Part shown: positions 1 to 15,700 of the stretch, one piece after another
Layout of the letters: each line of letters begins with the position of its first letter
Numbering within the stretch: position 1 is the first letter of the stretch
Assembly: GCA_017991635.1 (NCBI GenBank)
Contig: JAGOQE010000001.1
Location: 65,008 to 129,007 of the forward strand
Origin: Minisyncoccota bacterium
GTDB taxonomy: Bacteria; Patescibacteriota; Minisyncoccia; Phycocordibacterales; Phycocordibacteraceae
Length of the DNA stretch: 64,000 nucleotides
Reading direction: 5' to 3'
Program-made: the position numbers and the translations under genes
The notes under the pieces: generated by a model
The model's input: only the letters and a program-made list of their open reading frames with translations
Databases searched by the model: none
Told to the model about the DNA's origin: nothing

Positions 1-115
1 TGTGGCAGGCACGTGCCCACGTCTTAATAACCCCAGCTTCAGCTGGTCGCTTGCCCTCAAGTTTCTTGAGAAGCTTGACGTCCACGTAGGGACCTTTCTT
101 AAGTGATCGAGACAT
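1..115 (-). CDS. rpsS: 30S ribosomal protein S19, N-terminal part (gene runs off window start)
   Basis: Reverse complement of 1-115 translates [38 protein letters not shown], the canonical S19 N-terminus; ATG (revcomp) at 113-115. Confidence 0.85.
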
Positions 116-237
116 GAGAATTAAAAGCCCGCCAGAAGCGGTTAGGTAGAATCTATAGGAAAGTAGGCTCCGTGTCAAATCTTTGAGGTCGTGGTAGGGT
201 CATTTCGGAATGAGTCATGGTCATTTGGGAGGTTCCA

Positions 238-756
238 ATGAACCAGAATGAACAAAACATCGTCCAAGCTGAGTTTTTCCTGACCAAAAGCGATGAGTTG
301 AGTGACGTAGTCAAAGAAGTCTTTGAGCGGACGATTGATGGCGTTCCGGCCATTATTGTTGTGCGTTTTAGGGATGTCAGTGGCTCCGTTACTCGATTTA
401 CGAGAAAGTTATCTCTTCTGGCTGAGGCTTCGGACGAAAATACCAAACAGTTCGCATCCTCTCGTGGAATTCTGAGGAGCTACCACTTGTGGCGTTCTCG
501 GAAAATTACTCGTGAGCACAATACTCTGGAGGAGCAGCGCGCCAAGGTGGCGCGCCAAGGTTTCATACAGGCTATTGTTGCTCGAAGCGAAATCATGATT
601 GAAACTCGCCCTGAGCGGGACTTTCGTCCCATCGCTAAGAATGAAATTCACGAGACGCTTGAGGCCCTGAACAATGCCAGACATGCGTGGATATTTGTTT
701 TTCCACCGAACAAATCTTTGGATGCTGACGGTGTGAAAGTGCGCTGGTCGGCGTGA
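238..756 (+). CDS. hypothetical protein (172 aa), opposite orientation to the ribosomal operon
   Basis: ORF 217..756; GGGAGG RBS 7 nt upstream of ATG at 238; no family recognised. Confidence 0.4.
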   Translation: MNQNEQNIVQAEFFLTKSDELSDVVKEVFERTIDGVPAIIVVRFRDVSGSVTRFTRKLSLLAEASDENTKQFASSRGILRSYHLWRSRKITREHNTLEEQRAKVARQGFIQAIVARSEIMIETRPERDFRPIAKNEIHETLEALNNARHAWIFVFPPNKSLDADGVKVRWSA

Positions 757-809
757 AGTCGGGCCCTACGGAAACGTAGGGCCCGCTGTTTTAGCGCTAT
801 ACTAGAAGC

Positions 810-1580
810 ATGAACAAAGCACCCCTCTATATTCTCGCAGTTGGCATTCTCGTCGGTGCTGTTGGCGGATTAGTGTATTGGTACAAAACAAAGGCTCCTG
901 CAGTTGAAGCTCCTGTCGACACGGTTCTGGTACCAGGCGCAAAAGATGACTCAAGGACCATTTCTGAAGCAGGTCAGTATTTTAAAATTAAAGCGAGAGT
1001 CCCTGTAGAGTCCACGCTTGCTTCTACAGCAGGCACTGAAGCCTCAAATAAGGCCGTGGCGCTTATGGAAACCTCTATTGAGGCCCAAGTAGCAGAATTC
1101 AAAAAACAGGATATTTCTTGGCTTACAGACCGTCCCGAGAGCGAAAGCTATCCCCTTGAATTTGATGCGAATTACTCAATAACGGAGAACTCTCACCTTA
1201 TCTCCTATGATTTCCAGATATACCAGTTCGCTGGTGGCGCACATGGAGGAACCGTAGCGGAGACGTACACGTTTGATAAGAAAACCGGGAAGCGTGTTCA
1301 ACTCGCCGACCTATTCGTTTCAGGAAGTCCGTATCTTGAGCGAATAAGTGCGCACGCAAAAGCGCGCTTGCTTGCAACACTTGGTGAATACAAAGATGAG
1401 AAATGGATTACGGAGGGAACCACCCCAACGGAGAAGAATTTTCAGAGCTTCCTTGTCGATGGCGACAATCTCACGATTATCTTCGGACAGTACCAGGTTG
1501 GGCCGTATGTCCTTGGCATGCCTGAGATTCAAGCACCCCTCTCTACCCTCTCCGATATACTTAAGCCTGAGTATCGCTAG
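810..1580 (+). CDS. membrane-anchored DUF3298/DUF4163-like (RsiV/PdaC-like) protein
   Basis: N-terminal TM helix (LYILAVGILVGAVGGLVYWY); C-terminal FQIYQFAGGAHGGT...LTIIFGQYQVGPYVLG resembles DUF3298. Confidence 0.5.
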   Translation: MNKAPLYILAVGILVGAVGGLVYWYKTKAPAVEAPVDTVLVPGAKDDSRTISEAGQYFKIKARVPVESTLASTAGTEASNKAVALMETSIEAQVAEFKKQDISWLTDRPESESYPLEFDANYSITENSHLISYDFQIYQFAGGAHGGTVAETYTFDKKTGKRVQLADLFVSGSPYLERISAHAKARLLATLGEYKDEKWITEGTTPTEKNFQSFLVDGDNLTIIFGQYQVGPYVLGMPEIQAPLSTLSDILKPEYR

Positions 1581-1591
1581 TTAGCGCAAAC

Positions 1592-1624
1592 GAAAAACCG
1601 CCCTTTCGGGCGGTTTTTCTTTGT
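1592..1624. terminator. bidirectional rho-independent terminator
   Basis: aaaaaccgccctttcgggcggttttt hairpin with A/T runs on both sides; sits between convergent 810..1580(+) and rplB(-). Confidence 0.7.
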
Positions 1625-1632
1625 AAAAATTC

Positions 1633-2475
1633 TTAACGCTTCTTTCCAACCTTTCGGCGAGAAACAATGAAGACGTTTGAGTACTTCTTTGGAGTACGGG
1701 TCTTCTGTCCCTTTCCAGTTGGCTTACCCCACATGCTCTTAGCACGGCGGAGACCGCGTCCCTGCTTACCTTCACCACCACCGTGTGGGTGATCAACAGG
1801 GTTCATGGCAGTACCACGAACTGTTGGGCGCTTGCCCATCCAACGTGAACGTCCTGCCTTACCAATGTTTACGAGACGGCTGTTCTCGTTTCCAACTGCA
1901 CCAATAGATGCGAAACAGAGATCAGACACCTTGCGAATTTCAGTTGAAGGAAGTTTAAGCTGAGCGTAGCCTGCGTCATGCGCTACGATTTCTGCGTAGT
2001 TACCTGCAGAACGAGCGAGACGAGCACCAGCTCCGACCTTAAGCTCAACGTTGTACACGAAGGTTCCTGAAGGAATCTTGCCGAGAGGAAGACGGTTTCC
2101 AGGCTTTACTGGAGCATTGTCTCCTACGAGGAAGGTATCTCCCACCTTCACATCCTTTGGAGCGAGCACGTATCGGCGCTCACCATCGGCATACACCACA
2201 CGAGCAATAAATCCTGTTCGGTATGGATCGTACTCAATAGTTTCAACACGTGCAGGAATGTCCTTCTTGTTGTAGGTGAAGTCAACGTTACGAAGTCGGC
2301 GCTTGTGGCCACCACCCTGGTGACGAACGGTAATGCGTCCTGCATTGTTACGTCCAGCCTGACGCTTCTTGCTCTTCAAGAGAGACTTCATTGGCTTGTC
2401 GCCAGAAAGAAGCTCCTTGTATGGAAGCGTCGTCATGTGGCGTCGGCTCTTTGTTGTTGGTTTGTAGGTCTTCAT
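1633..2475 (-). CDS. rplB: 50S ribosomal protein L2
   Basis: 280 aa; MNPVDHPHGGGEGK and RGTAMNPVDHP motifs typical of L2. Confidence 0.95.
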   Translation of the reverse strand: MKTYKPTTKSRRHMTTLPYKELLSGDKPMKSLLKSKKRQAGRNNAGRITVRHQGGGHKRRLRNVDFTYNKKDIPARVETIEYDPYRTGFIARVVYADGERRYVLAPKDVKVGDTFLVGDNAPVKPGNRLPLGKIPSGTFVYNVELKVGAGARLARSAGNYAEIVAHDAGYAQLKLPSTEIRKVSDLCFASIGAVGNENSRLVNIGKAGRSRWMGKRPTVRGTAMNPVDHPHGGGEGKQGRGLRRAKSMWGKPTGKGQKTRTPKKYSNVFIVSRRKVGKKR

Positions 2476-2486
2476 ATACGTAGGGC

Positions 2487-2831
2487 TTAGGCAAAGGCAA
2501 TGGTGTCACCCTTCTTAAGGAAAACATATGCCTTGTGTCGGCGGGCACGAGTTCCCACACCGCGACGAGTCTTAAGTGCAACCTTCTTTGCAGGAAGATT
2601 CACCACGTTTACTTTCTTAGGAGTAACTCCGTAGAAAGCCTGTACTGCGTCCTTGACCTGGAACTTAGTAACCTCTGGTGGTACAGCAAATACGTAGACA
2701 CCATTCTCAGTTCCAAGAAGTGCCTTCTCAGAGAGCCATGGGTGCTTAAGAACATGCGCAACGCTGTTCTTTTCAACGGTCTTGGTTGCGACCGTTAGCT
2801 TTGTTTTCTTGTGTTTGGTGAAGATAGCCAT
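2487..2831 (-). CDS. rplW: 50S ribosomal protein L23
   Basis: 114 aa; HVLKHPWLSEKAL...VNVVNLPAKK; position between L4 and L2. Confidence 0.85.
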   Translation of the reverse strand: MAIFTKHKKTKLTVATKTVEKNSVAHVLKHPWLSEKALLGTENGVYVFAVPPEVTKFQVKDAVQAFYGVTPKKVNVVNLPAKKVALKTRRGVGTRARRHKAYVFLKKGDTIAFA

Positions 2832-2842
2832 ATGCGTCAGGG

Positions 2843-3571
2843 TTATGCGGCTTTAGCCGGAGTAGTTACGCGGGCACTCAACACCTTAAGTGAATCGGTT
2901 GGATTCTCAATGATGAGGTACTTCTTAGCAAGCAAATCCACAGGATTGAGGTTTCGAGTCTCCTCAATCATGAGGCTTCCAATGTTACGGAGTGACTTCT
3001 CAGTGTTCATGTCCTTCTTTGAAAGAAGTACGATAGCTGCGTTCTTGCGCTTAGTTGCAAGTGTGTCATTTCCTGAACCCTTTGCGATTGCAAGAAGAAC
3101 AGTCTTTGCAAGCGCTGTCTTTGGCTCCTTAAATGATAGAGAGTCAACAAAGATGATTTCTCCGTGTGCAAACTTCTTTGAAAGTACTGATGCGAGTGCA
3201 GCAGCACGTTGCTTACGGTTGATTTTAACAGCGTATACCTTCTCGGTGCGTGGACCGTGAGTTACACCTCCACCCTTCCAAATTGGTGAGCGGTTAGAAC
3301 CGTGACGAGCGCGTCCTGTTCCCTTTTGCTTCCAAGGCTTCTTACCACCTCCAGCAACTTCGCTACGGAACTTTGTGTGTGCTGTAGAAGTGCGGGCATT
3401 TGCCTGCATACCTACAACTACCTGATGTACCAAATCTGCCTTCCAAGTAGCACCGAAGACTTCTGAAGGAAGGGCGATTGAGCCTGATTCCTTGCCATCC
3501 ATAGTGAAAACCGGTGCGGAAAGTCCGTCCTTGGTGGTCTTCTTTACTACTTTTTTAGTTGCGGTTGCCAT
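2843..3571 (-). CDS. rplD: 50S ribosomal protein L4
   Basis: 242 aa; KPWKQKGTGRARHGSNRSPIWKGGGVTHGP motif. Confidence 0.9.
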   Translation of the reverse strand: MATATKKVVKKTTKDGLSAPVFTMDGKESGSIALPSEVFGATWKADLVHQVVVGMQANARTSTAHTKFRSEVAGGGKKPWKQKGTGRARHGSNRSPIWKGGGVTHGPRTEKVYAVKINRKQRAAALASVLSKKFAHGEIIFVDSLSFKEPKTALAKTVLLAIAKGSGNDTLATKRKNAAIVLLSKKDMNTEKSLRNIGSLMIEETRNLNPVDLLAKKYLIIENPTDSLKVLSARVTTPAKAA

Positions 3572-3582
3572 ACAAAAATAAA

Positions 3583-4203
3583 TTACTTGGTGGCTACTAC
3601 TTCAATAAGTCCACCGCGTGCGCCAGGAACAGCTCCTGAAACGATGATTTCGCCGCGAGAAGCGTCCACGTGAAGCACCTTGAGACCTTTTACGGTCACG
3701 CGATCTCCACCCATACGTCCAGCCATGCGAAGACCCTTCGCAACACGGCCTCCTGCGCGGCCTCCACCACCGATAGAACCAGCCTCACGCTCAGAGTGCT
3801 TCTGACCGTGTGAACGGCGTCCTCCATGGAAACCGTGACGCTTAACCACGCCAGCAAATCCCTTACCCTTTGTGGTTCCCACAACCTCGATGTCGTCACC
3901 TACAGTGAAGGTGTCGATACCAATTTCACCTCCGAGTGCGTAGGTGCTTGAGTCATCAACACGAAATTCCTTAATTACCTTGAAGCCACGCCCCTTGGTG
4001 TGTCCAAGAACTGACTTACTAATACGAGAAGGCTTCTGCTCTTCAAATCCAACCTGCACGGCACTGTATCCGTCCTTACTCTCAGGGGTTTTTACCTGAG
4101 TAACGACAAGCGGACTGGTCTTAAGGACCGTTCCAACAGCAACAACACCGTCCTCACCCCAAATCTGGGTCATGCGGTCTTTGCGAGCAAGAATGAATTT
4201 CAT
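3583..4203 (-). CDS. rplC: 50S ribosomal protein L3
   Basis: Start trimmed to MKFILARKDRMTQIW (L3-like N-terminus); the listed ORF has a 46-aa junk extension; GKGFAGVVKRHGF motif. Confidence 0.9.
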   Translation of the reverse strand: MKFILARKDRMTQIWGEDGVVAVGTVLKTSPLVVTQVKTPESKDGYSAVQVGFEEQKPSRISKSVLGHTKGRGFKVIKEFRVDDSSTYALGGEIGIDTFTVGDDIEVVGTTKGKGFAGVVKRHGFHGGRRSHGQKHSEREAGSIGGGGRAGGRVAKGLRMAGRMGGDRVTVKGLKVLHVDASRGEIIVSGAVPGARGGLIEVVATK

Positions 4204-4345
4204 AGAAAAAGTAAAAGCGCTGATTGCAACAGCGCGAGATCCACCAAACATGGATTTCGGCCATTGGTACCTAGAACTCCAGAACATCTGGTAGGTACGT
4301 AGCGATAGGGAGACTCTACCGTATAGCCATCTAAAATGCAAGAAG

Positions 4346-4376
4346 GGCCTGGAATCGCGGTGCGATTCCAGGCCCT
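4346..4376 (-). terminator. hairpin terminator after inserted ORFs
   Basis: Perfect 14-bp stem gggcctggaatcgc-ggt-gcgattccaggccc followed on the minus strand by a T-rich tract. Confidence 0.6.
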
Positions 4377-4395
4377 TTCCCTACCGAAACAGGGA

Positions 4396-4899
4396 CTAAT
4401 CGACGAAAAGGACAAGATCTCTTGAGTCAGGCTTTTTCGAGAGTGTGACGAAGGGGTTCGGGAACCTCTGGAGAAGCTCGTACACCTCTTCACGCGAGGC
4501 GAGACCAAGAGCAACGGCAATTCTAAGGCACAGCATCTCGCAGATGTGCGCCGAAGGACCAGAGACCGCAAGCAAAAACTCACCGAGCCTGACCCCTGCC
4601 GCGAATTTGTCCGCATCTTCACCTTCCCTGGCAAGGACAAGGTCCTTGTTATAGGTAAGGCGGTAGATACGCTCCAAACCTCTTCCGTATACGGAATTGG
4701 TGTTCGTGGCCGAATCTCCAAATTCGTGAGAACGCTGCACAGCACCAAAAGAGTCCGAGACAATAACCGTGCCATAGAGCGGTTGCCCATACAGAGCACT
4801 GACCACCTTCGGATGCACTTTGAACGCCTCGACTGCCTGCAACACCACTTGCGGAAGTTTGGCATGCAATTTCGACACTTCAAGAGAACTACTGTTCAT
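4396..4899 (-). CDS. hypothetical protein (167 aa), inserted between rpsJ and rplC
   Basis: ATG within catatg at 4897-4899 with AAGGGG RBS; overlaps upstream ORF by 11 nt; weak HEFGDSATN motif only. Confidence 0.4.
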   Translation of the reverse strand: MNSSSLEVSKLHAKLPQVVLQAVEAFKVHPKVVSALYGQPLYGTVIVSDSFGAVQRSHEFGDSATNTNSVYGRGLERIYRLTYNKDLVLAREGEDADKFAAGVRLGEFLLAVSGPSAHICEMLCLRIAVALGLASREEVYELLQRFPNPFVTLSKKPDSRDLVLFVD

Positions 4900-5245
4900 A
4901 TGTTTGCCCCTTGCCTGTCTTGCCAATGTACGGCGCGAGTTCGCGCCTACGAAACCATACTGCTTCACGCTGTCTTCCAAGAATTTGAGCCCTGAAAACG
5001 CAGTACTGCGCTTTTTCAGCCTCATGCTGAATTTCAGCAATAGTCATGGACGTGTTGCCTGCCGTATACTCACCCAAAAGCTTGTCGCTTTTAATGAGGT
5101 CACGTTTGATACGCAGGATTCCCCGCCCAACGATTACCAGCTTTGCGCGAAGCGCGCGGTCTTCCTTTTGAAGCGACTCTTCACTTCGCCACGAAAGCGG
5201 AATGAAGGAGTGGAAGAACCACCGATCAAGCGAAATGACACGCAT
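4889..5245 (-). CDS. hypothetical protein (118 aa)
   Basis: GGGAGGG RBS 5 nt upstream of ATG at 5245; overlaps the downstream ORF (co-translated pair). Confidence 0.4.
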   Translation of the reverse strand: MRVISLDRWFFHSFIPLSWRSEESLQKEDRALRAKLVIVGRGILRIKRDLIKSDKLLGEYTAGNTSMTIAEIQHEAEKAQYCVFRAQILGRQREAVWFRRRELAPYIGKTGKGQTYEQ

Positions 5246-5343
5246 GGTGCCCTCCCTATTTTATTGTTCCGCTCTAGACACTACGCCTTAATCACTAAAA
5301 AGCAATGTAACCACGCACCGAAACGACGCGTGGTTACCACGAA

Positions 5344-5553
5344 CTACCCATAGGTCGGAATCTTACAAAACTGACCTGTCACTCTATTTCTCCAGTAGCC
5401 ATACCTATCGATGTGATCATTCTTTCCTTTTGTATGAAACGGACGCTTAAGACTTCTCTCATACGCTTCTTGACCACCAGTAGCCTCAACAATGAGACCC
5501 TGCACCTTACGCTTCTTCTTTATGGCGTCAGGAACGAACTTTATTTCTCTCAT
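5344..5553 (-). CDS. small protein (69 aa) with weak RelE/YoeB-like motif
   Basis: GGGAGG RBS; KRPFHTKGKNDHIDRYGYWRNRV resembles YoeB [25 protein letters not shown] but lacks the C-terminal catalytic H/Y. Confidence 0.35.
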   Translation of the reverse strand: MREIKFVPDAIKKKRKVQGLIVEATGGQEAYERSLKRPFHTKGKNDHIDRYGYWRNRVTGQFCKIPTYG

Positions 5554-5599
5554 GTGAACCTCCCAAAGAGCCGACTGTGAATCCTACACTAGGATACAC

Positions 5600-5637
5600 A
5601 AAAGCAAAACCGCCCTTGCGGGCGGTTTTGCTTTTCA
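5600..5637. terminator. rho-independent terminator after rpsJ
   Basis: aaaaccgcccttgcgggcggtttt hairpin flanked by A/T runs. Confidence 0.7.
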
Positions 5638-5649
5638 AGTTCTTGCGAA

Positions 5650-6006
5650 CTAGATCATCTTCACGTCAATCGTCACTCCAGATGGAAGTGAGAGGTTCGT
5701 AAGAGCCTCAATCACTTTCGGATTTGGAGAGAGGATATCAATCAAGCGCTTATGGATACGCATTTCGAACTGCTCACGTGCGTCCTTGTGAACGAACGTT
5801 GAGCGGTTCACGGTCCAACGCTTGATTTCAGTTGGAAGCGGAACAGGGCCTACTACTTTCGCATCGAAGCGAGCTGCAGTATCCATAATCTGCTTTACTG
5901 AGACATCAAGAATCTTGTGCTCGTAGGCGCGTACACGGATACGAAGCTTTGGCTCCGCCGCCCCGTCTGCCTGAGCTCCTTTCTTCGCTTTCGTTTGAGT
6001 TGCCAT
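5650..6006 (-). CDS. rpsJ: 30S ribosomal protein S10
   Basis: 118 aa; KLRIRVRAYEHKILD...HKDAREQFEMRIHKRLIDI matches the S10 core. Confidence 0.9.
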   Translation of the reverse strand: MATQTKAKKGAQADGAAEPKLRIRVRAYEHKILDVSVKQIMDTAARFDAKVVGPVPLPTEIKRWTVNRSTFVHKDAREQFEMRIHKRLIDILSPNPKVIEALTNLSLPSGVTIDVKMI

Positions 6007-6029
6007 ACGAGTAAGAGTTAGGAGATTGC

Positions 6030-7232
6030 TTACGCAACAATCTTAGTTACCACGCCGGCACCCACAGTCTTACCACCCTCGCGGATAGCAAAACGCATCT
6101 GGTCTTCCATAGCTACAGGAGCGGTGAGCTTTACCTTGAAGGTAACAGTATCACCTGGCATAACCATTTCCTTTCCTTCTGGAAGGGTTACTTCTCCAGT
6201 AACGTCAGTTGTACGAACGTAGAACTGAGGCTTGTAACCAGTGAAGAATGGGGTGTGACGTCCACCCTCGTCCTTAGAGAGGATGTATACCTCTGCTTCG
6301 AAGTCAGTGTGAGGCTTCACAGAACCCATCTTTGCGAGAACCTGACCACGGTGCACGTCTTCCTTCTTCGTACCACGGAGAAGAATACCTGCGTTGTCGC
6401 CAGCCTGTCCCTCTGAGAGTTGCTTGTTGAACATCTCAATACCGGTAACAGTCGTCTTTGCTGTGTCCTTGATACCGACGATTTCAACTTCGTCACCTAC
6501 CTTTAGGATACCGCGCTCAATACGACCGGTTACTACCGTACCGCGACCTTCAATTGAGAAGATGTCCTCAATAGGCATGAGGAAAGGCTTCTCAACATCA
6601 CGCTCTGGCTGTGGGAAGTATGAGTCCATCGTGTCGACGAGCTCCTTCACCTTAAGTGCCCACTGGTCATCAGCTGAAGTTGCTTCAAGCGCCTTCAAAC
6701 CTGAACCCTTGATAACTGGAGTATTTGCTCCGTCAAAGCCCTGCTTGGTGAGAAGTTCACGGATTTCCTCTTCAACGAGGTCAACCATGTCTGCATCGTC
6801 TACCATGTCTACCTTGTTTAGGAAGACGATAAGACGAGGCACACCAACCTGCTTTGCAAGAAGAATGTGCTCGCGGGTCTGAGGCATAGCGCCGTCGGTC
6901 GCGGCAACTACGAGTACGGCGCCGTCCATTTGGGCAGCTCCCGTAATCATGTTCTTAATGTAGTCGGCGTGACCTGGAGCGTCGATGTGAGCGTAGTGTC
7001 GGTTTGGACTCTCGTACTCTGAGTGGTGGAGCGCAATAGTAATACCGCGCGCCTTCTCTTCAGGAGCGTTGTCAATGTTTTCAACCTTCTCAACACGAGC
7101 CTTGTAGCCTGCGCCTGAGTTAAGGCTAAGAACGTTCAAAATAGACGCCGTGAGGGTCGTCTTGCCGTGGTCAACGTGGCCAATGGTGCCTACGTTCATG
7201 TGCGGCTTGCTGCGATCAAATGCATCTGCCAT
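6030..7232 (-). CDS. tuf: elongation factor Tu
   Basis: 400 aa; [24 protein letters not shown] motifs. Confidence 0.97.
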
Positions 7233-7442
7233 ACGTTTTTAAATTACTGGTAGTTAAGCAATAACTGTTTAATGTGCTTATTCCTGCCAGCGACTGTTTA
7301 GGAAACTGGCGACCAAGGTCTAAGCGGGTACCCGCGCAGCGCCTTCTACCAGTTCCTTATAGGGGAACAGTTAAAAAGAGCGCCGTTTCGCGTTATAGGT
7401 AAGGTACCGTCTCCTGAATCAAAGGTCAAGCGGTAGTAAGGA

Positions 7443-8045
7443 CTAAGCTCCCTGAAGAACGTACTGGCAGGTCGACGTTGCGACCTGATAGCCAACAACA
7501 TACTTCATTGAAGCGCCTTGAGCGTTCACTGGGCTCAGCACCTTGAAGCTTTCTTCCTTTTCATCGATAACAACTTCAACCTTACTTGAGCGGAACTTAG
7601 GAGTTTTCCAGAACTGATAGAAATACACCCTATTTTTGTCTGCATAGTAGGCGTATTCACCCTTTCCTCCACAGCGATCAACCACATCCTGGTCAGGATA
7701 GGTCATGAAATCAGTAATTCTGTGGAACGTCTTAGCGTTAGCGCCTGGAATAGCCAGTGTCGAGGTGCTCGTTACCGACTTAAAATAGACAGCGTCATTG
7801 TCAGTATATGAGTAGGCATCGATTTCCTGTCCAGTTTCTGGAGTTACGGCCATCTCAGGCACGGTAGGCTTTTGTGTACCTTCCGTAGTAGTCTCGCCTT
7901 CAAGAAGTGCCTCCCCTTCACTCTCAAGGTTAGAAAGAGTCTCGGAGACGTCCACACGTACAAAGAACCAATATGAGAGGAAGCCGGCAATAAGAATAAT
8001 CGCCCCAACGATTCCGCCGATAAGTGCTTTTTGCTTTGTGGTCAT
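7443..8045 (-). CDS. membrane-anchored DKNYY-repeat protein, inserted between fusA and tuf
   Basis: N-terminal TM; AYYADKNRVYFYQ resembles the DKNYY repeat family. Confidence 0.5.
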   Translation of the reverse strand: MTTKQKALIGGIVGAIILIAGFLSYWFFVRVDVSETLSNLESEGEALLEGETTTEGTQKPTVPEMAVTPETGQEIDAYSYTDNDAVYFKSVTSTSTLAIPGANAKTFHRITDFMTYPDQDVVDRCGGKGEYAYYADKNRVYFYQFWKTPKFRSSKVEVVIDEKEESFKVLSPVNAQGASMKYVVGYQVATSTCQYVLQGA

Positions 8046-8058
8046 GAAGGCTAGAATA

Positions 8059-8094
8059 CCACAAAACCCGCGTCCTAGGACGCGGGTTTTGTGG
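8059..8094 (-). terminator. 17-bp perfect hairpin downstream of fusA
   Basis: ccacaaaacccgcgtcc-ta-ggacgcgggttttgtgg between the fusA stop (8115) and the next start (8045). Confidence 0.55.
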
Positions 8095-8114
8095 TATGTG
8101 CACTCACCCCCTGT

Positions 8115-10262
8115 CTATTTGCGTGATGCAATAATGTCATTTGCTACGTTTGTAGGAACCACTTCGTAGTGGTCAAACTCCATAGTCATAGAACCGCGTC
8201 CCTCTGTCATAGAACGAAGGGTTGTGGTGTAACCAAACATTTCTGAGAGAGGCACCTTAGCGTGAATTGCCTTGTTCATTCCACGCTCTTCCATACCCTC
8301 AATAGAACCGCGCTTTCCAGCGAGAGAACCATTGATGTCTCCCATGAACTGCTCTGGAACAACGACCTCAACGCTCATGATTGGCTCAAGAATGGCTGGC
8401 TTAGCTTTCTTGGCGGCCTCAACGAATGCCATAGACGCAGCGATCTTAAAGGCGATTTCTGATGAGTCCACATCGTGGAAGGAACCATCGTAGAGATCGA
8501 TAGACACGTCCACCATTGGGAAGCCGGCCAACGTACCGCGTGCCATAGACTCGCGGAATCCCTTTTCAATAGGATTGATGTACTCACCTGGAATGGCACC
8601 TCCCTTGATGTTGTTGATGAACTCGAAGTGCGCTTCGCGGGTAACGTTCTTTGGAAGTTTTGCCTCTGGGTCAATTTCCTCAAGACGCTTCATCTTAATC
8701 TTCACGTGTCCGTACTGACCCTTACCTCCTGACTGCTTGATGTACTTACCTTCAGCGTCAGATGAGCCAAGAATGGTCTCGCGGTATGCCACCTGTGGCT
8801 TACCAACGTTTGCCGTCACGTTAAACTCGCGCTTCATACGGTCCACAAGAATCTCAAGGTGAAGTTCACCCATACCAGAGATGATAGTCTCCATGGTCTC
8901 GTCGTCCGTGGTCACACGGAAGGTTGGATCCTCATCTGAAAGTTTCTTAAGAGCGATACCCATCTTCTCCTGGTCAGCCTTAGTAGCTGGCTCAATGCGA
9001 AGCGATACCACTGGCTCAGGGAACTTAATAGACTCAAGAATAATTGGATTAGCTTCGTCACAAAGCGTGTGAGCAGTCTTGGTGTCCTTGAGTCCCACCA
9101 TCGCAGCGATTTCTCCTGTGAACACCTGCTCCACCTCTTCGCGCTTATCAGCCTGAAGACGAACGATACGTCCAACACGCTCCTTCGTGCCAGTGTTTGC
9201 GTTGTATACGTATGAACCTGCAGTTACAGAACCAGCGTATACACGGAAGAAGGTAAGCGCTCCCACGAATGGGTCGGTCTGAAGTTTGAAAGCTAGCGCA
9301 GTAAATGGCTCGCTATCAAGTCCCTGTCGAGTAACCTCTTCACCAGTCTTTGGATTGATTCCCTTCACTTCAGGAATATCGAGTGGAGATGGAAGGTAGT
9401 CCACCACAGCATCAAGTACGAGCTGAACGCCCTTGTTCTTAAGAGCTGAACCGGTGTACACAGGGAAGATTTCGTTTGCAATAACGGCCTTGCGAAGTGT
9501 TGCTTTCAGCTCTTCAAGTGAAGGCTCATTTCCTTCAAAGAAGGCAGTCATCATCGCATCATCGTGCTCCACAATACGCTCAAGAAGCTCGCCACGGTAG
9601 AGTTTTGCATCCTCGAGCATGTTTGCTGGAATGTCTCCTTCATGTACCTCGTCTCCCATCTTTCCTGAGAAGGTGTATGCCTTCATGGTGAGTAGGTCTA
9701 CAACACCCTCAAAGTCACCTTCTGCGCCAATAGGAAGTTGCATGCGAACGGCCTTCTTTGAAAGACGATCAAGAATTGACTTGTATGAGTTCTCAAATGA
9801 AGCACCTGTTCGGTCGAGCTTGTTGATGAAACATACGCGAGGTACGTTCGCCTCGTCAGCGTAGCGCCAGTTAGTCTCTGACTGAGGCTCCACACCAGCA
9901 ACACCATCAAACACCACAACAGCGCCGTCCAAGACACGCATTGAGCGCTTCACCTCGGCTGTGAAGTCAATGTGTCCTGGAGTGTCGATAACGTTGAAAC
10001 GGTACTTCTTGGAAGGATCCTTCTTGTCTGGCTCATTAGTGCGAGTCCAGAAACAGGTAATAGCCGCCGCAGTAATGGTGATACCGCGTTCGCGCTCCTG
10101 CTCCATCCAGTCAGTAGTGGTCTCACCTTCGTGAACCTCACCAATTTTGTGTTGAGAACCAGTGTAATAAAGCACGCGCTCTGAGGTCGTTGTCTTACCA
10201 GCGTCCACGTGAGCCACGATGCCGAAGTTGCGCACTTTTTCTAGGGGATAGTCGCGTTGCAT
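8115..10262 (-). CDS. fusA: elongation factor G
   Basis: 715 aa; [23 protein letters not shown] motifs. Confidence 0.97.
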
Positions 10263-10509
10263 ATATAAGGTAAATAAATAAAAAGCCGCCGAGGCGTTAT
10301 GTACAAGATACGAAATAAGGGGACAAAAAGCAAACAGGGCTTTTGTGCACCGTTTATGAAAATTGACTCATTGATTCAGCAAAGACGGCGACTAATTTGA
10401 AAATGTTAAGCGAGAGGGCAAAAACACTAATTTCAATGAGAATAAGAGCGAGACCAAACCATGTTGGAATGCGTTTCATACGGAAAATAGTAGCACGGAG
10501 AAGCAGTGA

Positions 10510-10539
10510 GGGCGCGAATCAGCTAGCTGATTCGCGCCC
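10510..10539 (-). terminator. 30-bp perfect palindrome, putative terminator of the NlpC/P60 gene
   Basis: gggcgcgaatcagct|agctgattcgcgccc located 7 nt downstream of the stop at 10546. Confidence 0.45.
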
Positions 10540-10545
10540 TCTTGC

Positions 10546-11388
10546 CTACCCCATGAGAGGCAGGCGAATGATACTAGTGATTCCGCCCTCTGCCTTTGCA
10601 AGGCGACGTTCCACCAAGTTTTCAAGCAATTCGTCACTCGCCTTCCGATGGTACTCAGACGCATGCAGAATCGTTGCCGAATCTGACATGATGCCCACGT
10701 GACCACGGAAGTTAATGATGTCTCCCCTCCTTGGTCGTTCGTCTTTCGAGACGGTGAACTCCGGAAAGGCTTGAGCAATTTGGTCACTATCGCGAGGGCA
10801 CCTGATTCCGCACACATCAAGCGCGTGCTGAACATAGGCCGAACAATCAACGCCGACCGTGGTGTCTCGACCCGCCCAATAGTAGGGCGTATCGAGGAGT
10901 GTCTCAGCGACCACAACGGGGTCATCTGCAAGCCGACTCAAACTCCACAGGCACTCTATGTGCACAAACCCAAGCAAAGGAATGCGCGCAAAGTCGCCCT
11001 GCACACCGTCAGACGACACAAGGGCATTAAAGCCAAGCTGAGTGACCATGCCCGACTTGATATCAGCGCGACGATAGACAATCGTACGCGGATTAATCAC
11101 TCGATGTGTGGGTGGGTATCCACGTGACGCAAGGGCGCGCATGTCGATATATCCCACATACCCGTCTCGCTCAGATTGAGCAAGGACCGTACCAGCCTGA
11201 ATCAGGCTTCCGAAGGTTTTGACGTTCTCTCCGTAGAGAAAGTACGTCTCGACCGGAGCGGAGCTTGCAGGGTCATGGAGAACCGGGACCGAAGCCCTGG
11301 TAATCACCTGTTCATCAAACACCTTGGGATCTGCGCCAAAGAGCGCAGGCGATAGACGCCTGTCGCGTGTTCGTTCCTTCAACATCAC
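10546..11388 (-). CDS. NlpC/P60 (C40) cell-wall peptidase with SH3b-like N-domain
   Basis: YYWAGRDTTVGVDCSAYVQHAL...RRGDIINFRGHVGIMSD matches the Cys/His catalytic core; visibly GC-rich versus flanks. Confidence 0.75.
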   Translation of the reverse strand: MMLKERTRDRRLSPALFGADPKVFDEQVITRASVPVLHDPASSAPVETYFLYGENVKTFGSLIQAGTVLAQSERDGYVGYIDMRALASRGYPPTHRVINPRTIVYRRADIKSGMVTQLGFNALVSSDGVQGDFARIPLLGFVHIECLWSLSRLADDPVVVAETLLDTPYYWAGRDTTVGVDCSAYVQHALDVCGIRCPRDSDQIAQAFPEFTVSKDERPRRGDIINFRGHVGIMSDSATILHASEYHRKASDELLENLVERRLAKAEGGITSIIRLPLMG

Positions 11389-11600
11389 TTACCTCCTTCA
11401 GGAGTTTCAAAGATTCGCTTGAGAGCAACGGCAATGACAGTAAGACCAAGCAGGGCTTCGCCGGCCGAAACAGCCACACTTCCGGGCATGGTCTTGTCGG
11501 TGACGACCGTCGAGGTAAACCTCAGATAACCGTCAAAGACGACGTAACCCCCGACCAGCATAGCGAAACCGTGGTAGAGATAGTGCGAAAGCTTTTTCAT
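11385..11600 (-). CDS. small membrane protein (71 aa), overlaps NlpC/P60 start
   Basis: Two predicted TM helices; 4-nt ATGA-type overlap with the downstream gene. Confidence 0.4.
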   Translation of the reverse strand: MKKLSHYLYHGFAMLVGGYVVFDGYLRFTSTVVTDKTMPGSVAVSAGEALLGLTVIAVALKRIFETPEGGK

Positions 11601-11661
11601 GAGACGTTCTCCGTAAACAACAGTCTAATTCGTACCTTACGCTTTTTTTATTTCACGTCAA

Positions 11662-11694
11662 AGAAAAACCGCCCAGAAGGGCGGTTTTTCTTTG
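11662..11694. terminator. rho-independent terminator after rpsG
   Basis: aagaaaaaccgcccagaagggcggtttttcttt. Confidence 0.7.
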
Positions 11695-11796
11695 ATTCAG
11701 TTGTAACGAGGACTACTACCAAGTGAGTGAGGAAAGAAGAAATTCTGATTTCTTAATTTCCGAGCGAACGCAGGGAGAAAGATTTGTAAACAAATC

Positions 11797-12261
11797 TTAC
11801 CAAGCGAAGTGAGCAAAAGCCTTGTTGCTTTCTGCCATGCGGTGCATGTCGTCCTTCTTCTTGATTGCAACTCCTTCGTTCTTCACCGCAAGGAGAATCT
11901 CAGCAGCAAGCTTGTCGGCCATAGGCTTTCCCTTACCTGAACGTGCAGCGTTGATAATCCAACGGTACGCGAGAGAAACACGGCGCTGTTGAGGAACTTC
12001 ACGAGGCACCTGGTAGTTTGCACCACCGACACGACGTGAACGAACTTCCATGAGAGGAGCAACGTTTCGAATTGCAGTATCAAAGGTCTCAAGTGGGTCC
12101 ATTCCCTCAGCCTTAATCTTCTCAAGAGCTGCGTACACTACCTTGCGAGCAGTGTCCTTCTTTCCATCCCACATAACCGTGTTGATGAATCGAGAAATAG
12201 CGTCTGAATTGTATACAGAGTCAGGACGGCGAACGGGCTTATTTTTGATTGGTCGGCGCAT
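11797..12261 (-). CDS. rpsG: 30S ribosomal protein S7
   Basis: 154 aa; typical S7 including NVAPLMEVRSRRVGGANYQVP. Confidence 0.95.
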   Translation of the reverse strand: MRRPIKNKPVRRPDSVYNSDAISRFINTVMWDGKKDTARKVVYAALEKIKAEGMDPLETFDTAIRNVAPLMEVRSRRVGGANYQVPREVPQQRRVSLAYRWIINAARSGKGKPMADKLAAEILLAVKNEGVAIKKKDDMHRMAESNKAFAHFAW

Positions 12262-12276
12262 AGTAGATTAATGAAA

Positions 12277-12687
12277 TTATGCCTTAGGCTTCTTAGCTCC
12301 GTAGCGAGAACGTCCACGACGACGCTTGTCGAGTCCTGCAGTATCGAGCTTACCGCGCACGATAGTGTACTGCACACCGATGTCCTTCACGCGACCACCG
12401 CGTAGAAGTACCACTGAGTGCTCCTGGAGGTTGTGTCCTTCACCTGGGATGTAGGCAGTAACTTCCATACCGTTAGTAAGGCGAACACGGGCAATCTTAC
12501 GGATAGCTGAGTTAGGCTTGCGGGGAGTCTTGGTAGTTACCTTTACACAAACACCGCGCTTGAATGGAGATGGGTAGAACTCGGGGCGGTTCTTAAGCGT
12601 ATTGAATCCACGAGAAAGAGCCACCACTTTTGATTTGCGGGTCTTGTTCTTTCGTGACGTCTTGGTCAATTGGCTGATTGTTGGCAT
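12277..12687 (-). CDS. rpsL: 30S ribosomal protein S12
   Basis: 136 aa; [15 protein letters not shown]...[16 protein letters not shown]; Arg at the K43-equivalent position and loss of the P91-equivalent residue. Confidence 0.95.
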
Positions 12688-12722
12688 TTGAAATGAAAAC
12701 TCCCCCGAGGGAAGCTCCGTGA

Positions 12723-12751
12723 ACTATATAGAATGTAGTCAAAAAATGCAA
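12723..12751 (-). promoter_or_regulatory. putative sigma70-type promoter of the str operon
   Basis: Minus strand TTGCAT-17 nt-TATAGT about 35 nt upstream of the rpsL ATG. Confidence 0.35.
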
Positions 12752-12767
12752 CTACCGGTGTCTCCTA

Positions 12768-15700
12768 TTAGCTCTGAACGAAGGTGTTTCGTGGGTCCAC
12801 CTTACCATTTTTGAAGCCTATCACCATTTCGAGCTTCTGATTTCTACGCTTCTTTTGAAGTGCCACAAAGGCATATTTCTGGAAATCCTTGTTTTCACAG
12901 GCTGATTTGATGGTTTGGTACGCCTCCCCAGAGACCTCTTCCTGACCTCCAGTTAGGGTAATGCCAAGCATTTGGTCAGGATTGCTCGTTAGTTCAAAAG
13001 AGAGCTCACCCGTAAATGGGCGCCCGTTTCTTCCGAAGACCTCTATTTTATTACCCACTTCATAGGCCAAAAGAGGTGAAAGAAGGCGAATTTCGTTTGT
13101 AATGTTGTTTGGAATGGCTATATTCTCAGGATTTACGGTTCTCGTAAGCCACTTTGTCTCACCCTCCTTAATACCTTCACCAAGACCAACCGTTAGTGGC
13201 ACCTCCCTTCGAGCAGTCATTTCCCCCTCTGGAAGAAGTACTTCCTTTGAGTTGAGCCAGATGTTCACCGCTGCCTGAGTGTCCGGAGCTCTAAAACCAA
13301 TAGCAACAGCGTTTTCCGCTCCGTTTCGAAGCAAGGCATCACGAGGTTCTTTAGGAAGTTGGGAGAGTTTTGCAAGCTGATCGAACTGAGGACGAGACGC
13401 CGTTCCTAGTATGAGGACATTAGGGTCAGTGGAGAGCGTATCAGCAACAGGCACAGCTTTGTTCGTTGGAAGATTGAGTGGCGTTCGTAGCGTTGGTGCA
13501 GTTTCTGCCTTCTTCATGGCATACGCATCAAGAATTGTATCGAGTTCTGAGCGGAACCCAGTCGCCGCGATAACACTGTTTGCGAGAATTGGTTTTCCTT
13601 CCCTATCCCTTATAGGTTGCCCAGCGGTATCAAGAACAACAAGCTGACGGTCCTCAGGTGCCGACTCTAACGTTGCATACCCGACATCAGCCACACGACC
13701 AGGGATTTGTTCAATCAAGTTTCCGCGACCGTTTCGTGGACGAAGGTCGTTAATTTGTGCGTAGCGAGGACGAGCAGAAAGTTCACCCTCAGCAATGACA
13801 TAGATTTTTGTAACATCACGCACGCGTGGGTTGTCTCCTTGAAACACGCTTCCAATGTATTCAATCAGAGTGTCAGCAGAGTTTCCCTTTCCGTAAATTA
13901 CGAGTGTCTCTCCAGGTGAAAGATCTTCGCCACTTCTGTTTGCGAGCGCTTCAAACGCTTCAAGCGTCTGACTAATCTTTGGAAAGCCCTCTGAATCTTT
14001 TGTGTCGCGAATAATTTGTTCTGCTTTAGAGCCTTCAAGTTTGAAACCAAAGCCTGGCTCACCAAGTCCAGTGGACGCGAAGATTGCATCAGTTTTTATT
14101 TTCAGTTGATACCCCTCTTTTCCACCCACCTGAAGTGTTACGATTTTGTCTCCTGCATCTTCTTCGTTTGGATTCGGGTCAACAGAAACAACACGCGTCT
14201 CTAGAGCCAGATTTTTTACAAGCATTGCAGTTTGTAGTGAAAGTACTGATTGCAATTCTTCATTTGTTGGATACCGCGCACTAGAAAGATCATCAGGTGT
14301 TGGCAGATAATCTACGGTCGTATTGATACTTCCCTGACGAATGTCGCCGTTATCTTTTCGCTCTCCCGGGTACCAGCGAAGCGGACTACCGTATGCACGT
14401 ACCGTTTTAATTTCATCTCCATTGGGTTGGTCGGGAAGAGTGGGTGCTCCGTTTCCGCGCTTGTTTGCACTATTCAATTCCCACGCAGCGCCTTTTGGAA
14501 TTGCGAATGGTCCACCAGGTTGTTCACCTGCGTCAACTACAAGAGCATTCTCTGCAAGCGCCGGATTATTTCGCACAAGTTCACCAAAGGCAGCGATGCC
14601 GTTTGGTCCAGTACCAATTTGAAGAAGGGGGATGTAGTCGCCGTCACGAAGATTCGCAAGGGTGTTTTCTGAAAGTGTATCAAAGTGATGACGGAGAAAT
14701 TCATTCGTTGTTCCTGGGTCAGCAGTAATTGCCGCAATAAGGTATGGATTAAAGACTGAGAGAAGTTCAACGGACTCCAAGTACGCGCGTTCGGTATCAG
14801 TGAGTGGACGCTGTTCTTCAAATGCACTCACGCGCTGTTCAAATTTTCTTCGAGGACTCACCACCTCTCCATTCATCTTTGTTGGCCTATCAAGTACAGA
14901 TGCGACATCGTCTGCAGTAGTACCATCAGCACGAAGTGATTCCACAAGCGGAAATACCGTTTCAATAAATCGCTCGCGCATATAATTAAATGCTCGTTTA
15001 TTCCTTCCTAACTCAGGACACGCGAAACGCTCTTTGAGTCCTTGAATTTCTCGCTCACGAATCTCTCCTGCAAAACGCTCATCAAATATTTCAGGACGAT
15101 TACCCGCCACATAACTTCGGTACAGAGTGAAGAGTTCTCGTCGTATCGCTTGGTCCTCTGCAGTCTCTCCTGGGAAATTATCAATCTCCGCGAGTATTGT
15201 GTCGGGTGAGCCAGTTGCGAAACTTTCTCGGAGTACAGTCGCACGTTCAATACGTCTGAAATTTTGAATGTCTTGGATATCTTGTGATACGCGCTCACGA
15301 ATTTCATTCACCGCATTCACATAATCAAACTCTCCAAACGAAGGACGAAGTGGAATAGTATCTAAATAAAGACGCAGGTCATCTTCAGTTGCGTCGAGCT
15401 TCACCAAATCTTGTGCACCCTTACTAAAGTCAGCGAGCTCGGCCTTGTATGCAGTGTTCACCAAGACAGCGCCGGCCTGTCTGTCCTTATCATCTCCCGA
15501 GCGAAGAAGCTCGCCAGCACTTGCAAGGACTGCTTCAATATTTCTGCTTTGTGGCGGGAGACTCTTTACTGCCTCTCGCACAATATTTTCACGGCGTTTT
15601 GCGCGAAGCACATCTTGAAGTTCACCAACAACTTCAAGACCTTCAAGATTTCCTTGCTCGAATGTAGCGAGAAGTGGTGCAAGCTCTTCAGGTTTTCTGC

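Follow-up and report, generated by a model that had tools for sequence, protein, structure and literature searches.

The first 12.76 kb of a 64,000-nucleotide (nt) stretch of contig JAGOQE010000001.1 from a Minisyncoccota bacterium (assembly GCA_017991635.1, positions 65,008 to 129,007; the whole stretch is referred to as the window) carry the str and S10 ribosomal gene clusters. These clusters are a textbook example of change-resistant gene order and form the backbone of the syntenic ribosomal-protein block by which Candidate Phyla Radiation (CPR) genomes are assigned their place in trees. An earlier note on this DNA had described a canonical gene order with four interrupted junctions, and this was confirmed by open reading frame (ORF) listing and translation, with orthologues in a congeneric contig, L082, labelled by Pfam. 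On the minus strand, the genes are read in the order rpsL-rpsG, fusA, tuf-rpsJ, rplC-rplD-rplW-rplB and rpsS. The first putative transcription unit (11797-12687) consists of rpsL (12277-12687) and rpsG (11797-12261), which are separated by 15 nt and whose L082 orthologues match the Pfam families S12 and S7, respectively. The gene for the 715-aa elongation factor EF-G, fusA (8115-10262), stands by itself, and tuf (6030-7232) and rpsJ (5650-6006) form a pair (5650-7232) with 23 nt between them. A further block (1633-4203) contains rplC (3583-4203), rplD (2843-3571), rplW (2487-2831) and rplB (1633-2475) with 11-nt gaps, and rpsS starts at position 115 and continues beyond the window edge. The five junctions within these blocks are thus tight (11-23 nt), and the four open junctions span 882-1534 nt and hold 10-11 foreign ORFs together with eight hairpins. 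The tight junctions that would go with two long polycistronic str/S10 operons are lacking at these four places. No tRNA was found in the cluster region. EF-G is 81-85% identical to that of metagenome-assembled genomes mostly labelled Candidatus Kaiserbacteria or Patescibacteria, and CPR-typical content (ComEC, RecJ, the type IV pilus proteins PilB and PilC, RNase Y and a CCA-adding enzyme) is encoded elsewhere in the window. The source is taken to be an ultra-small, Kaiserbacteria-like member of the CPR/Patescibacteria.

The genes lying in the open junctions (the cargo) are of several kinds. Between rpsG and fusA, a 71-aa hydrophobic ORF (mem71; 11385-11600, minus strand) overlaps by 4 nt a gene for a peptidoglycan peptidase with NlpC/P60 and SH3_16 domains (10546-11388, minus strand; PF00877, 48.4 bits against a cut-off of 23, 1e-12; SH3_16, 30.2 bits against a cut-off of 25.8, 4e-7), which is RipC-like by NCBIfam. 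The small membrane protein and GC-rich peptidase of the earlier note correspond to the hydrophobic ORF and this gene, the GC content of the peptidase gene being 0.548 against a mean of 0.49 and its third-position GC (GC3) lying 1.3 standard deviations (sd) above the mean. This junction also holds an unannotated 41-aa hydrophobic ORF that the note did not mention (10344-10469, minus strand), which sits between the hairpin that follows the peptidase gene and the putative fusA promoter. It is conserved in L082, where frame and length are kept and many differences fall, by eye, at third codon positions; the gene caller instead called an antisense 55-aa ORF at this site in L082. Between fusA and tuf lies a gene for a 200-aa protein (7443-8045, minus strand). 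Of the DKNYY-repeat membrane protein claimed here, the gene itself and an N-terminal hydrophobic stretch are present, and two DKNYY-like motifs can be seen in the translation, but the match to Pfam DKNYY is under the cut-off (19.1 bits against 25, E = 0.0022) and the L082 orthologue has no recorded match.

The rpsJ|rplC junction contains three minus-strand ORFs: o69 (69 aa, 5344-5553), o118 (118 aa, 4889-5245) and o167 (167 aa, 4396-4899). The last two form the overlapping pair that had been described, with the o167 ATG at 4899 and the o118 stop ending at 4889, an overlap of 11 nt. The label "YoeB-like" for o69 was rejected, as no match was found in Pfam (even at E <= 10), NCBIfam or PADLOC, and a large protein search for homologues of o69 gave a single near-identical cluster only. 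Likewise, o118, o167, mem71 and o179 (see below) gave no match in Pfam, NCBIfam or PADLOC; the predicted model of o167 has a generic GAF/roadblock/DUF336-like fold. Two plus-strand genes pointing against the operon are indeed found between rplB and rpsS, namely a DUF3298/PdaC-domain gene (810-1580; PF11738, 59.2 bits, and PF13739, 40.4 bits, both above cut-offs) and an orphan 179-aa ORF, o179 (217-756). GGAG/GGAGG-type Shine-Dalgarno (SD) sites precede mem71, the NlpC/P60 gene, o69, o118 and o167, whereas the motif is absent from the 25 nt upstream of the starts of the ribosomal-protein genes, fusA and tuf in window positions 1-12760.

Junctions across relatives

To place the open junctions in context, 80 loci around fusA were taken, one genome per species, the ten cluster genes were placed in them by tblastn and the gap at each junction was measured. 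Thirty loci with fusA at least 67% identical were treated as a Paceibacteria-like group, and the remainder as other, mostly CPR, loci. The rpsG|fusA junction exceeds 400 nt in 13 of 26 Paceibacteria-like loci and in 6 of 32 others. For fusA|tuf the figures are 16 of 17, with six further loci having no tuf within about 10 kb, and 16 of 23. The rpsJ|rplC junction is longer than 150 nt in 9 of 16 Paceibacteria-like loci and longer than 400 nt in 5 of these 16 (3 of 20 among the others). Finally, rplB|rpsS is longer than 150 nt in all 8 Paceibacteria-like loci in which it could be measured, and in another five rpsS, rplV and rpsC are all missing from the adjoining 2.7-6.3 kb; the same junction is tight in 17 of 17 other, mostly CPR, loci. 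Open junctions in the Paceibacteria-like group measure 0.15-7.4 kb, and the units are sometimes fully apart.

In the Paceibacteria-like group, none of the remaining five junctions is longer than 203 nt. Thus rpsL-rpsG is tight in all 71 loci that show the junction (at most 203 nt), tuf-rpsJ is tight in 17 of 17 Paceibacteria-like loci (more than 400 nt in 3 of 22 others), and none of the junctions within rplC-rplD-rplW-rplB is above 400 nt at any locus, Paceibacteria-like loci having 132 nt or less. Loci with non-CPR titles have nearly all junctions tight, with a few above 150 nt and two above 400 nt. The survey thus marks the four break points as a trait of the Paceibacteria-like lineage of the CPR. 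Other CPR bacteria have only some of them, and among the loci sampled rplB|rpsS is broken in the Paceibacteria-like group alone.

Several relatives have a boundary with no gene in it. In L004, L005 and L007, rpsJ is followed by a hairpin and then by rplC with no gene between them (gaps of 171-228 nt), and in L004 and L005 a promoter and leader like those described below are also present. In L003, the end of rpsG, a hairpin, a promoter-like element and the start of fusA are all found inside 112 nt. Because such empty sites carry terminator-like and promoter-like elements but no cargo, the boundary appears to be older than the cargo.

Congener contigs (L082-L090) were reached via homologues of o167; they come from other samples and encode ribosomal proteins 97-100% identical to those of the window. 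The same arrangement is seen on these independent contigs, which stem from at least three projects (one JGI sample, 3300063997, and Logan assemblies of SRR, DRR and ERR runs, with SRR11088468 and DRR685425 among the samples holding these populations), so that an assembly or binning artefact or a chimeric contig has a negligible chance of accounting for it.

The spc part of the cluster is interrupted too. L082 has a 168-aa orphan ORF (17644-18150) between rplE and rpsN, and a 1.5-kb gap is found at the same place in L007.

Hairpins, promoter-like elements and leaders

Eight hairpins lie in the open junctions, with folding energies of -20 to -35 kcal/mol and z-scores of -4.5 to -9, none of 200 shuffles being as stable. 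The one after rpsG (11658-11695; -28.9 kcal/mol, z = -9.0) has a 17-bp stem with an A tract on one side and a T tract on the other, as in terminators of the bidirectional type, is built on the core AACCGCCC-N4-GGGCGGTT and is conserved in L082 with another loop. Five nt past the NlpC/P60 stop codon, a 34-nt perfect palindrome is found (10508-10541; -33.4 kcal/mol, z = -6.8), which is kept in L082 with one central change and could be a protein-binding or processing site instead of a terminator. After fusA, a 42-nt perfect palindrome (8056-8097; -35.2 kcal/mol, z = -8.0) would form a 19-bp RNA stem with a U-rich 3' arm; in L082 its outer stem is kept and its inner stem is altered yet still paired. 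The hairpin after rpsJ (5600-5635; -28.3 kcal/mol) combines a 16-bp stem and a GCAA loop with the same AACCGCCC/GGGCGGTT core, and is followed downstream by one after o69 (5307-5337) with a U tract and one after o167 (4343-4377; -32.3 kcal/mol), in which a 16-bp stem is followed by CUUGCAUUUU and is held by compensatory double changes in L082 and L087. The core recurs between rplB and the convergent DUF3298 gene in a bidirectional hairpin of 15 bp with one mismatch (1589-1622; -23.9 kcal/mol on the minus and -24.7 kcal/mol on the plus strand), which is also conserved in L082. The last hairpin (760-785) lies between o179 and the DUF3298 gene. Seven of the eight are 4-19 nt beyond stop codons, the rpsG hairpin being about 100 nt beyond its stop, and U-rich tracts accompany all except that at 10508 (11658, 8056, 5600, 5307, 4343, 1589 and 760). 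They are predicted from these features to terminate transcription. An Rfam search of window positions 1-17 kb at E <= 1 gave sub-threshold matches only, to terminator-like parts of unrelated small RNAs.

The hairpins named in the earlier note are all present and are longer than had been given, and those at 5307-5337 and 760-785 are additions to its list. Its statement that every insert is bracketed by hairpins is mostly correct but fails at two places, as none is found between the 200-aa gene and tuf or between o179 and rpsS. Perfect stems of at least 11 bp occur 23 times in the 64 kb; 19 of these fall between genes, most of them at 4-30 nt from a 3' end, and many are flanked by A/T tracts. 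The first 12.76 kb contain seven, against about 4.6 expected, a mild excess. Because the same style ends genes all through the 64 kb, the hairpins of the cluster are this genome's ordinary terminator style and not insert-specific brackets; the oddity is that a ribosomal superoperon bears them as densely as the remaining chromosome. Among relatives, perfect stems of at least 10 bp, in hairpins of A-tract/GC-stem/T-tract type, follow fusA in 22 of 31 loci, and rpsJ has such a hairpin behind it in each of the nine Kaiserbacteria-like loci inspected (L003-L009, L015 and L018), that of L003-L006 being orthologous with a CCGCCC/GGGCGG-type core. No such hairpins were seen after rpsL or tuf in the same survey.

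Promoter-like elements precede each of the five blocks, all on the minus strand. Upstream of rpsL, TTGCAT-17-TATAGT (12751-12746 and 12728-12723; element 12723-12751) is kept as TTGCAT/TTGCGT-17-TATAxT in L082, L001, L003-L008 and L011 with varying spacers, and is followed by a leader hairpin (12702-12714), also flagged by a generic scan, whose stem changes by compensatory substitutions, a U-rich tract and the AUG. Upstream of fusA, TTGCTT-17-TATCTT (10333-10328 and 10310-10305; element and leader 10263-10333) leads into a mini-hairpin (ACGC-CUCG-GCG), followed by a UUUUUAUUU tract and then an SD-less AUG, an architecture also found in L001, L002, L003, L008 and L082. The tuf element, TTGACC-17-TACCTT (7429-7424 and 7406-7401), has its hexamers kept only in the congener L082, where the spacer differs. 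It would give a 5' untranslated region of about 165 nt (7233-7400; 7233-7429 with the promoter) that shows about 2 differences from L082 in its last 177 nt, the synonymous divergence (pS) of tuf itself being 0.108, and whose predicted fold is not significant (z = -1.07). Upstream of rpsS, TTGACA-17-TAGATT (178-173 and 155-150; unit 1-178) and a leader hairpin with a U tract (129-141) are conserved in L082, L004, L005, L008 and L009. A further promoter-like pair, TTGACG-16-TAAGGT (11661-11634), precedes the cargo at rpsG|fusA, giving a putative unit of 10546-11661.

The element upstream of rplC, TTGCAT-17-TAGAGT (4341-4336 and 4318-4313; element and leader 4204-4341), was aligned across eight genomes (the window, L082, L083, L087, L003, L004, L005 and L008). 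The hexamers TTGC(A/G)T and TAG(A/T)GT are invariant, separated by 17 nt of variable spacer. The leader, some 105 nt long, ends with a hairpin (4217-4235), UUUUACUUUUU and the AUG, has a fold with z = -3.1 and carries a terminator-like site flagged just ahead of the AUG. It is near-identical in congeners, in which the adjoining o167 protein is only 66-78% identical, and is much more conserved than the synonymous sites of rplC. No Rfam match was found for this leader, and it is possible that it acts as an autoregulatory ribosomal-protein leader. A common layout can be recognized in the leaders of rpsL, fusA, rplC and rpsS, in which a short GC hairpin (12702-12714, 10273-10300, 4217-4235 and 129-141, respectively), placed close behind the predicted start site, is followed by a UUUUnAUUU tract and an SD-less AUG. 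This layout is kept across Kaiserbacteria-like genomes, with stems that differ by compensatory changes, and may stabilise the 5' end, act as an attenuator or signal SD-independent initiation.

Hairpins at the block ends and promoter-like pairs conserved ahead of rpsL, fusA, rplC and rpsS (for tuf, in L082 only) support the earlier proposal that the cluster is transcribed as several independent units, the promoter-like motifs presumably initiating transcription. We consider it probable that the str/S10 cluster of this lineage underwent an ancient break-up, typical of the lineage, into separate transcription units, and that the boundaries between the units act as sites of gene turnover. Instead of forming one or two long operons, the ancestral superoperon would be divided at set positions into five or more units (rpsL-rpsG, fusA, tuf-rpsJ, rplC-rplD-rplW-rplB and rpsS onwards), each of which would have its own sigma-70-type promoter, a short SD-less leader and a strong intrinsic-terminator hairpin at its end. 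The DNA from the terminator of one unit to the promoter of the next would be ordinary intergenic space, in which genes could be gained, lost or swapped with ribosomal gene expression left undisturbed. With the gaps free for gene exchange, the four boundaries would therefore become filled with lineage-specific accessory genes that have their own ribosome-binding site and usually their own terminator. In this genome, the cargo codes for a cell-wall peptidase, a DUF3298 protein, orphans and small hydrophobic proteins that probably sit in the membrane; most of it is old and vertically inherited within the genus, and it differs between genera across the class.

Several points weigh against this proposal. 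Termination efficiency and promoter activity are read from sequence alone; the promoter-like pairs are weak matches, of which a generic scan found only the rpsS pair, and that scan found fewer promoter-like sites than shuffles contain (5 vs 9.0 +/- 3.5). No hairpin separates the 200-aa gene from tuf, and the palindrome at 10508-10541 lacks a U tract. The 200-aa gene has no SD site and starts 11 nt past the fusA hairpin, so that it would need read-through or a leaderless promoter overlapping the hairpin. Terminators in highly expressed operons are often leaky, which leaves room for long read-through transcripts. In the survey of relatives, the taxon groups were set by fusA identity and record titles with no phylogeny behind them, and the gaps come from tblastn matches and greedy ORF calls, not from curated annotation.

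Some of these features would be expected if the hairpins were attenuators, 3'-end stabilisers or RNase processing sites and the region were made largely by read-through, leaving the superoperon intact but decorated. The 200-aa gene has no space for a classical promoter after the fusA hairpin and no hairpin before tuf, the palindrome without a U tract would fit a processing site, and 59 of the 89 gap ORFs of relatives run in the direction of the cluster. RNase Y is encoded in the window, and RNA processing is therefore plausible. However, conserved promoter hexamers lie directly 3' of the hairpins at four boundaries, and the other 30 of the 89 ORFs are antisense, as are two in the window, which is hard to reconcile with obligatory read-through. 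In addition, units are more than 10 kb apart or fully separated in several relatives, and an identical hairpin style ends unrelated genes genome-wide. Production of the region mainly by read-through is therefore judged unlikely.

Age and turnover of the cargo

The earlier note took the inserts for repeated colonisation of the cluster. This was examined in the congeners, where L082 has mem71 (61% identity), the NlpC/P60 gene (85%), the 200-aa gene (89.5%), o69 (84%), o167 (66%) and the DUF3298 gene (75%) at the same places. Homologues of o167 form five clusters of 66-96% identity and are always found immediately upstream of rplC. Between the window and L082, the cargo has dN/dS values of 0.05-0.16 (mem71 0.12, NlpC/P60 0.075, the 200-aa protein 0.054 and the rpsJ|rplC cargo 0.15-0.16) and dS values of 0.8-2.1, which are near saturation. 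The core inserts are thus under purifying selection. As congeners share them, dS is near saturation and dN/dS is low, the inserts are genuine genes of long residence, not newcomers. Divergence from L082 is mosaic along the cluster, with dS of 0.12-0.37 in the ribosomal genes and tuf, 0.64 in fusA and 0.8-2.1 in the cargo. Strong synonymous constraint in highly expressed genes gives low dS, and codon-usage constraint is probably the cause here; recombination was considered from the low ribosomal dS, but the pattern was not taken as evidence of it because synonymous constraint yields the same result.

Turnover can nevertheless be seen among close relatives. As judged by tblastn on the contigs, o118 is present in L083-L086 and absent from L082 and L087-L090; an unrelated 216-aa ORF takes the place of o179 in L082; and in L083 a DUF2339 gene and an antisense ORF of 145 aa have been added behind rpsJ. 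At greater distances, hardly any gap ORFs from the 80 loci have homologues among one another or among the inserts of the window, the exception being an antisense DUF3298 gene at rplB|rpsS in L005 and L008, at the same place and in the same orientation as in the window and L082. Pfam assignments among the 89 gap ORFs are a mixture of ordinary genes and include PG_binding (four), pilin-like (two), asparaginase, P-type ATPase, purD, purN, RNA methyltransferase, Lgt, HepT, holin, one reverse transcriptase and others, and about 40% of the relatives' gap ORFs have a hydrophobic segment. The possibility that relatives all carry the same inserts, which had been named as refuting an unusual colonisation, therefore holds for the congeners but not for distant relatives, which hold different cargo. 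Cargo turnover is real, but on a lineage scale, with mostly vertical inheritance within the genus and different cargo between genera.

These data largely refute a recent, genome-specific colonisation by horizontally acquired or mobile DNA, to which we give very little credence. It would be consistent with the raised GC content of the NlpC/P60 gene, with the strong SD sites on all co-oriented cargo except the 200-aa gene and on none of the ribosomal genes, and with the on/off pattern of o118, the o179 replacement and the DUF2339 gain in L083. However, in congeneric contigs of other samples the core inserts keep their places at high dS, the break points are lineage-wide, and the empty sites of relatives already carry a terminator and promoter. 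Profiles of GC and codon usage per gene gave no compositional sign of foreign origin: codon usage is genome-average, no insert being further than about 1 sd from the mean (values of 0.01-0.065; mean 0.073, sd 0.062) apart from o179 (about 1.5 sd), and GC3 of the NlpC/P60 gene is only slightly raised. Composition and codon usage lend recent transfer no support. No integrase, transposase or recombinase was found among the insert ORFs with Pfam, NCBIfam or PADLOC; five of these ORFs have no Pfam family and the other three fall in non-mobile families. A direct-repeat search of the window found no repeats flanking the inserts other than the terminator core shared by three hairpins; in L083, duplicated terminator copies surround a gained block (see below).

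The positional conservation of the core inserts, their purifying selection and the constant place of o167 immediately upstream of rplC in the genus could also mean that the cargo is tied to translation, as novel ribosome-associated or regulatory factors kept in the cluster for that reason. The encoded proteins argue against this, being hydrophobic (probably membrane), related to the cell wall (NlpC/P60, DUF3298/PdaC and transmembrane proteins) or orphans, as do the wholly different cargo of other genera and the antisense orientation of two cargo genes. A functional tie to translation is accordingly thought most improbable.

The shared core points to a further possibility, which would add to the break-up into separate units. 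The AACCGCCC-N4-GGGCGGTT core occurs three times in the 64 kb (after rpsG, rpsJ and rplB) with 0.00 occurrences expected, and is found at the same three places in L082. In L083, the gained DUF2339 gene and 145-aa ORF make up a 2.8-kb block after rpsJ, absent from the window and L082, that has three direct copies of the rpsJ terminator around it: the terminator itself, another perfect copy (identical over 26 nt, with the same loop) and a degenerate third (1058-1093, 3346-3372 and 3865-3900 of L083). This suggests, from a single case, insertion at the terminator or via its duplication. The terminator hairpins themselves may then be insertion sites, with recombination at the core, or its duplication, giving rise to cassettes of gene plus hairpin, and new genes lie downstream of the hairpin of the upstream unit in all cases examined. 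Terminator duplication is clear in one case only, though, the hairpins at 10508, 8056, 5307, 4343 and 760 are unrelated in sequence, and none of the insert ORFs matched a recombinase, integrase or transposase; gene conversion, or selection favouring a single efficient design of terminator, could explain identical cores. Insertion at the hairpins is for these reasons rather doubtful. The same degree of doubt attaches to a joint reading in which the superoperon of the class Paceibacteria is permanently broken at fixed points (among them rplB|rpsS, seen open here in this group alone), its pieces are independently promoted with a common SD-less leader, the shared-core terminators are sites of insertion or recombination, and the gaps are cassette-like hotspots for accessory genes largely of envelope or unknown function.

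Comparison with known systems

An 'invasion-separation' break-up of the rpoBC-str-S10-spc-alpha cluster has been described in Gammaproteobacteria and Bacilli (Brandis 2021, PMC8046335; Brandis, Cao & Hughes 2019, PMC6735719). The insertions analysed there lie mostly between operons (rpoBC|str and str|S10), with one inside rpoBC (PMC8046335). In both situations gene order is the same, a few genes enter a boundary, and the flanking blocks may then drift apart; here, linkage of fusA and tuf is lost in at least six relatives and that of rplB and rpsS in five. By contrast, tuf|rpsJ is tight in the present cluster and the cuts lie inside the str operon (rpsG|fusA and fusA|tuf) and inside the S10 operon (rpsJ|rplC and rplB|rpsS), and the breaks are clade-wide and not sporadic. 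The process looks the same as this known kind of cluster break-up, with different break points. No description of these CPR break points was found in full-text searching of the literature, the coverage of which was incomplete.

In archaeal and in cyanobacterial and plastid str clusters, the S10 gene follows the elongation factor (rps12-rps7-fusA-tuf-rps10). As in the window, rpsJ is there joined to tuf and apart from rplC; in the present lineage, however, rplC usually stays next to rpsJ, separated from it by cargo. We know of no rpsG|fusA or rplB|rpsS breaks in those lineages.

The hairpins resemble bidirectional intrinsic (Rho-independent) terminators in their GC-rich perfect stems, loops of 3-4 nt (GNRA in two), A/T tracts on both sides and location 4-30 nt past stop codons or between convergent genes, as at 1589-1622. 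They differ in being unusually long and perfect (15-21 bp) and, at 10508-10541, in lacking a U tract; the likeness is one of sequence. Superficially, short gene units that each have a hairpin and are stacked at one locus also recall integron cassette arrays (ORF plus attC), but the hairpins of the window have U tracts and are found genome-wide after ordinary genes, and the cargo lies on both strands. No integrase was found among the ORFs examined in 1-17 kb or 10 large ORFs elsewhere, the rest of the window not having been searched exhaustively, and no attI site was identified.

The leaders invite comparison with the S10 leader and L4 attenuation of Escherichia coli and with other ribosomal-protein leaders (Fu et al. 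2013, PMC3616713), in that a conserved structured leader with a hairpin and U run precedes rplC-rplD, and mini-hairpin and U-tract leaders are also present ahead of rpsL, fusA and rpsS. Unlike the E. coli leader, that of the window precedes rplC and not rpsJ, and it matches no Rfam family. The shared design of hairpin, U tract and SD-less start, together with the rplC leader, provides candidates for undescribed regulatory RNAs. The terminator duplication and the leader motif are the more novel leads from this work.

If borne out, clade-wide breaks inside both classical operons would show that a large bacterial radiation can do without co-transcribing these genes, and the breaks could serve as a structural marker of the Paceibacteria-like clade. 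Ribosomal protein stoichiometry in this lineage would need to be set by several promoters and leaders and not by one transcript. Because the gaps are bounded by nearly invariant genes, they offer convenient, easily amplified windows on strain-level turnover of accessory genes in uncultured organisms.

Directly upstream of rpsL, a position usually occupied by rpoB-rpoC, lies a 1350-aa ORF (12768-16820, minus strand) that has no significant Pfam or PADLOC match. Three tandem repeats of about 95 aa (NGIYRLNGYAIKYGPREEVLTTRVTGGGV...) can be seen by eye at its N terminus, and its position in L082 is taken by a different gene on the opposite strand.

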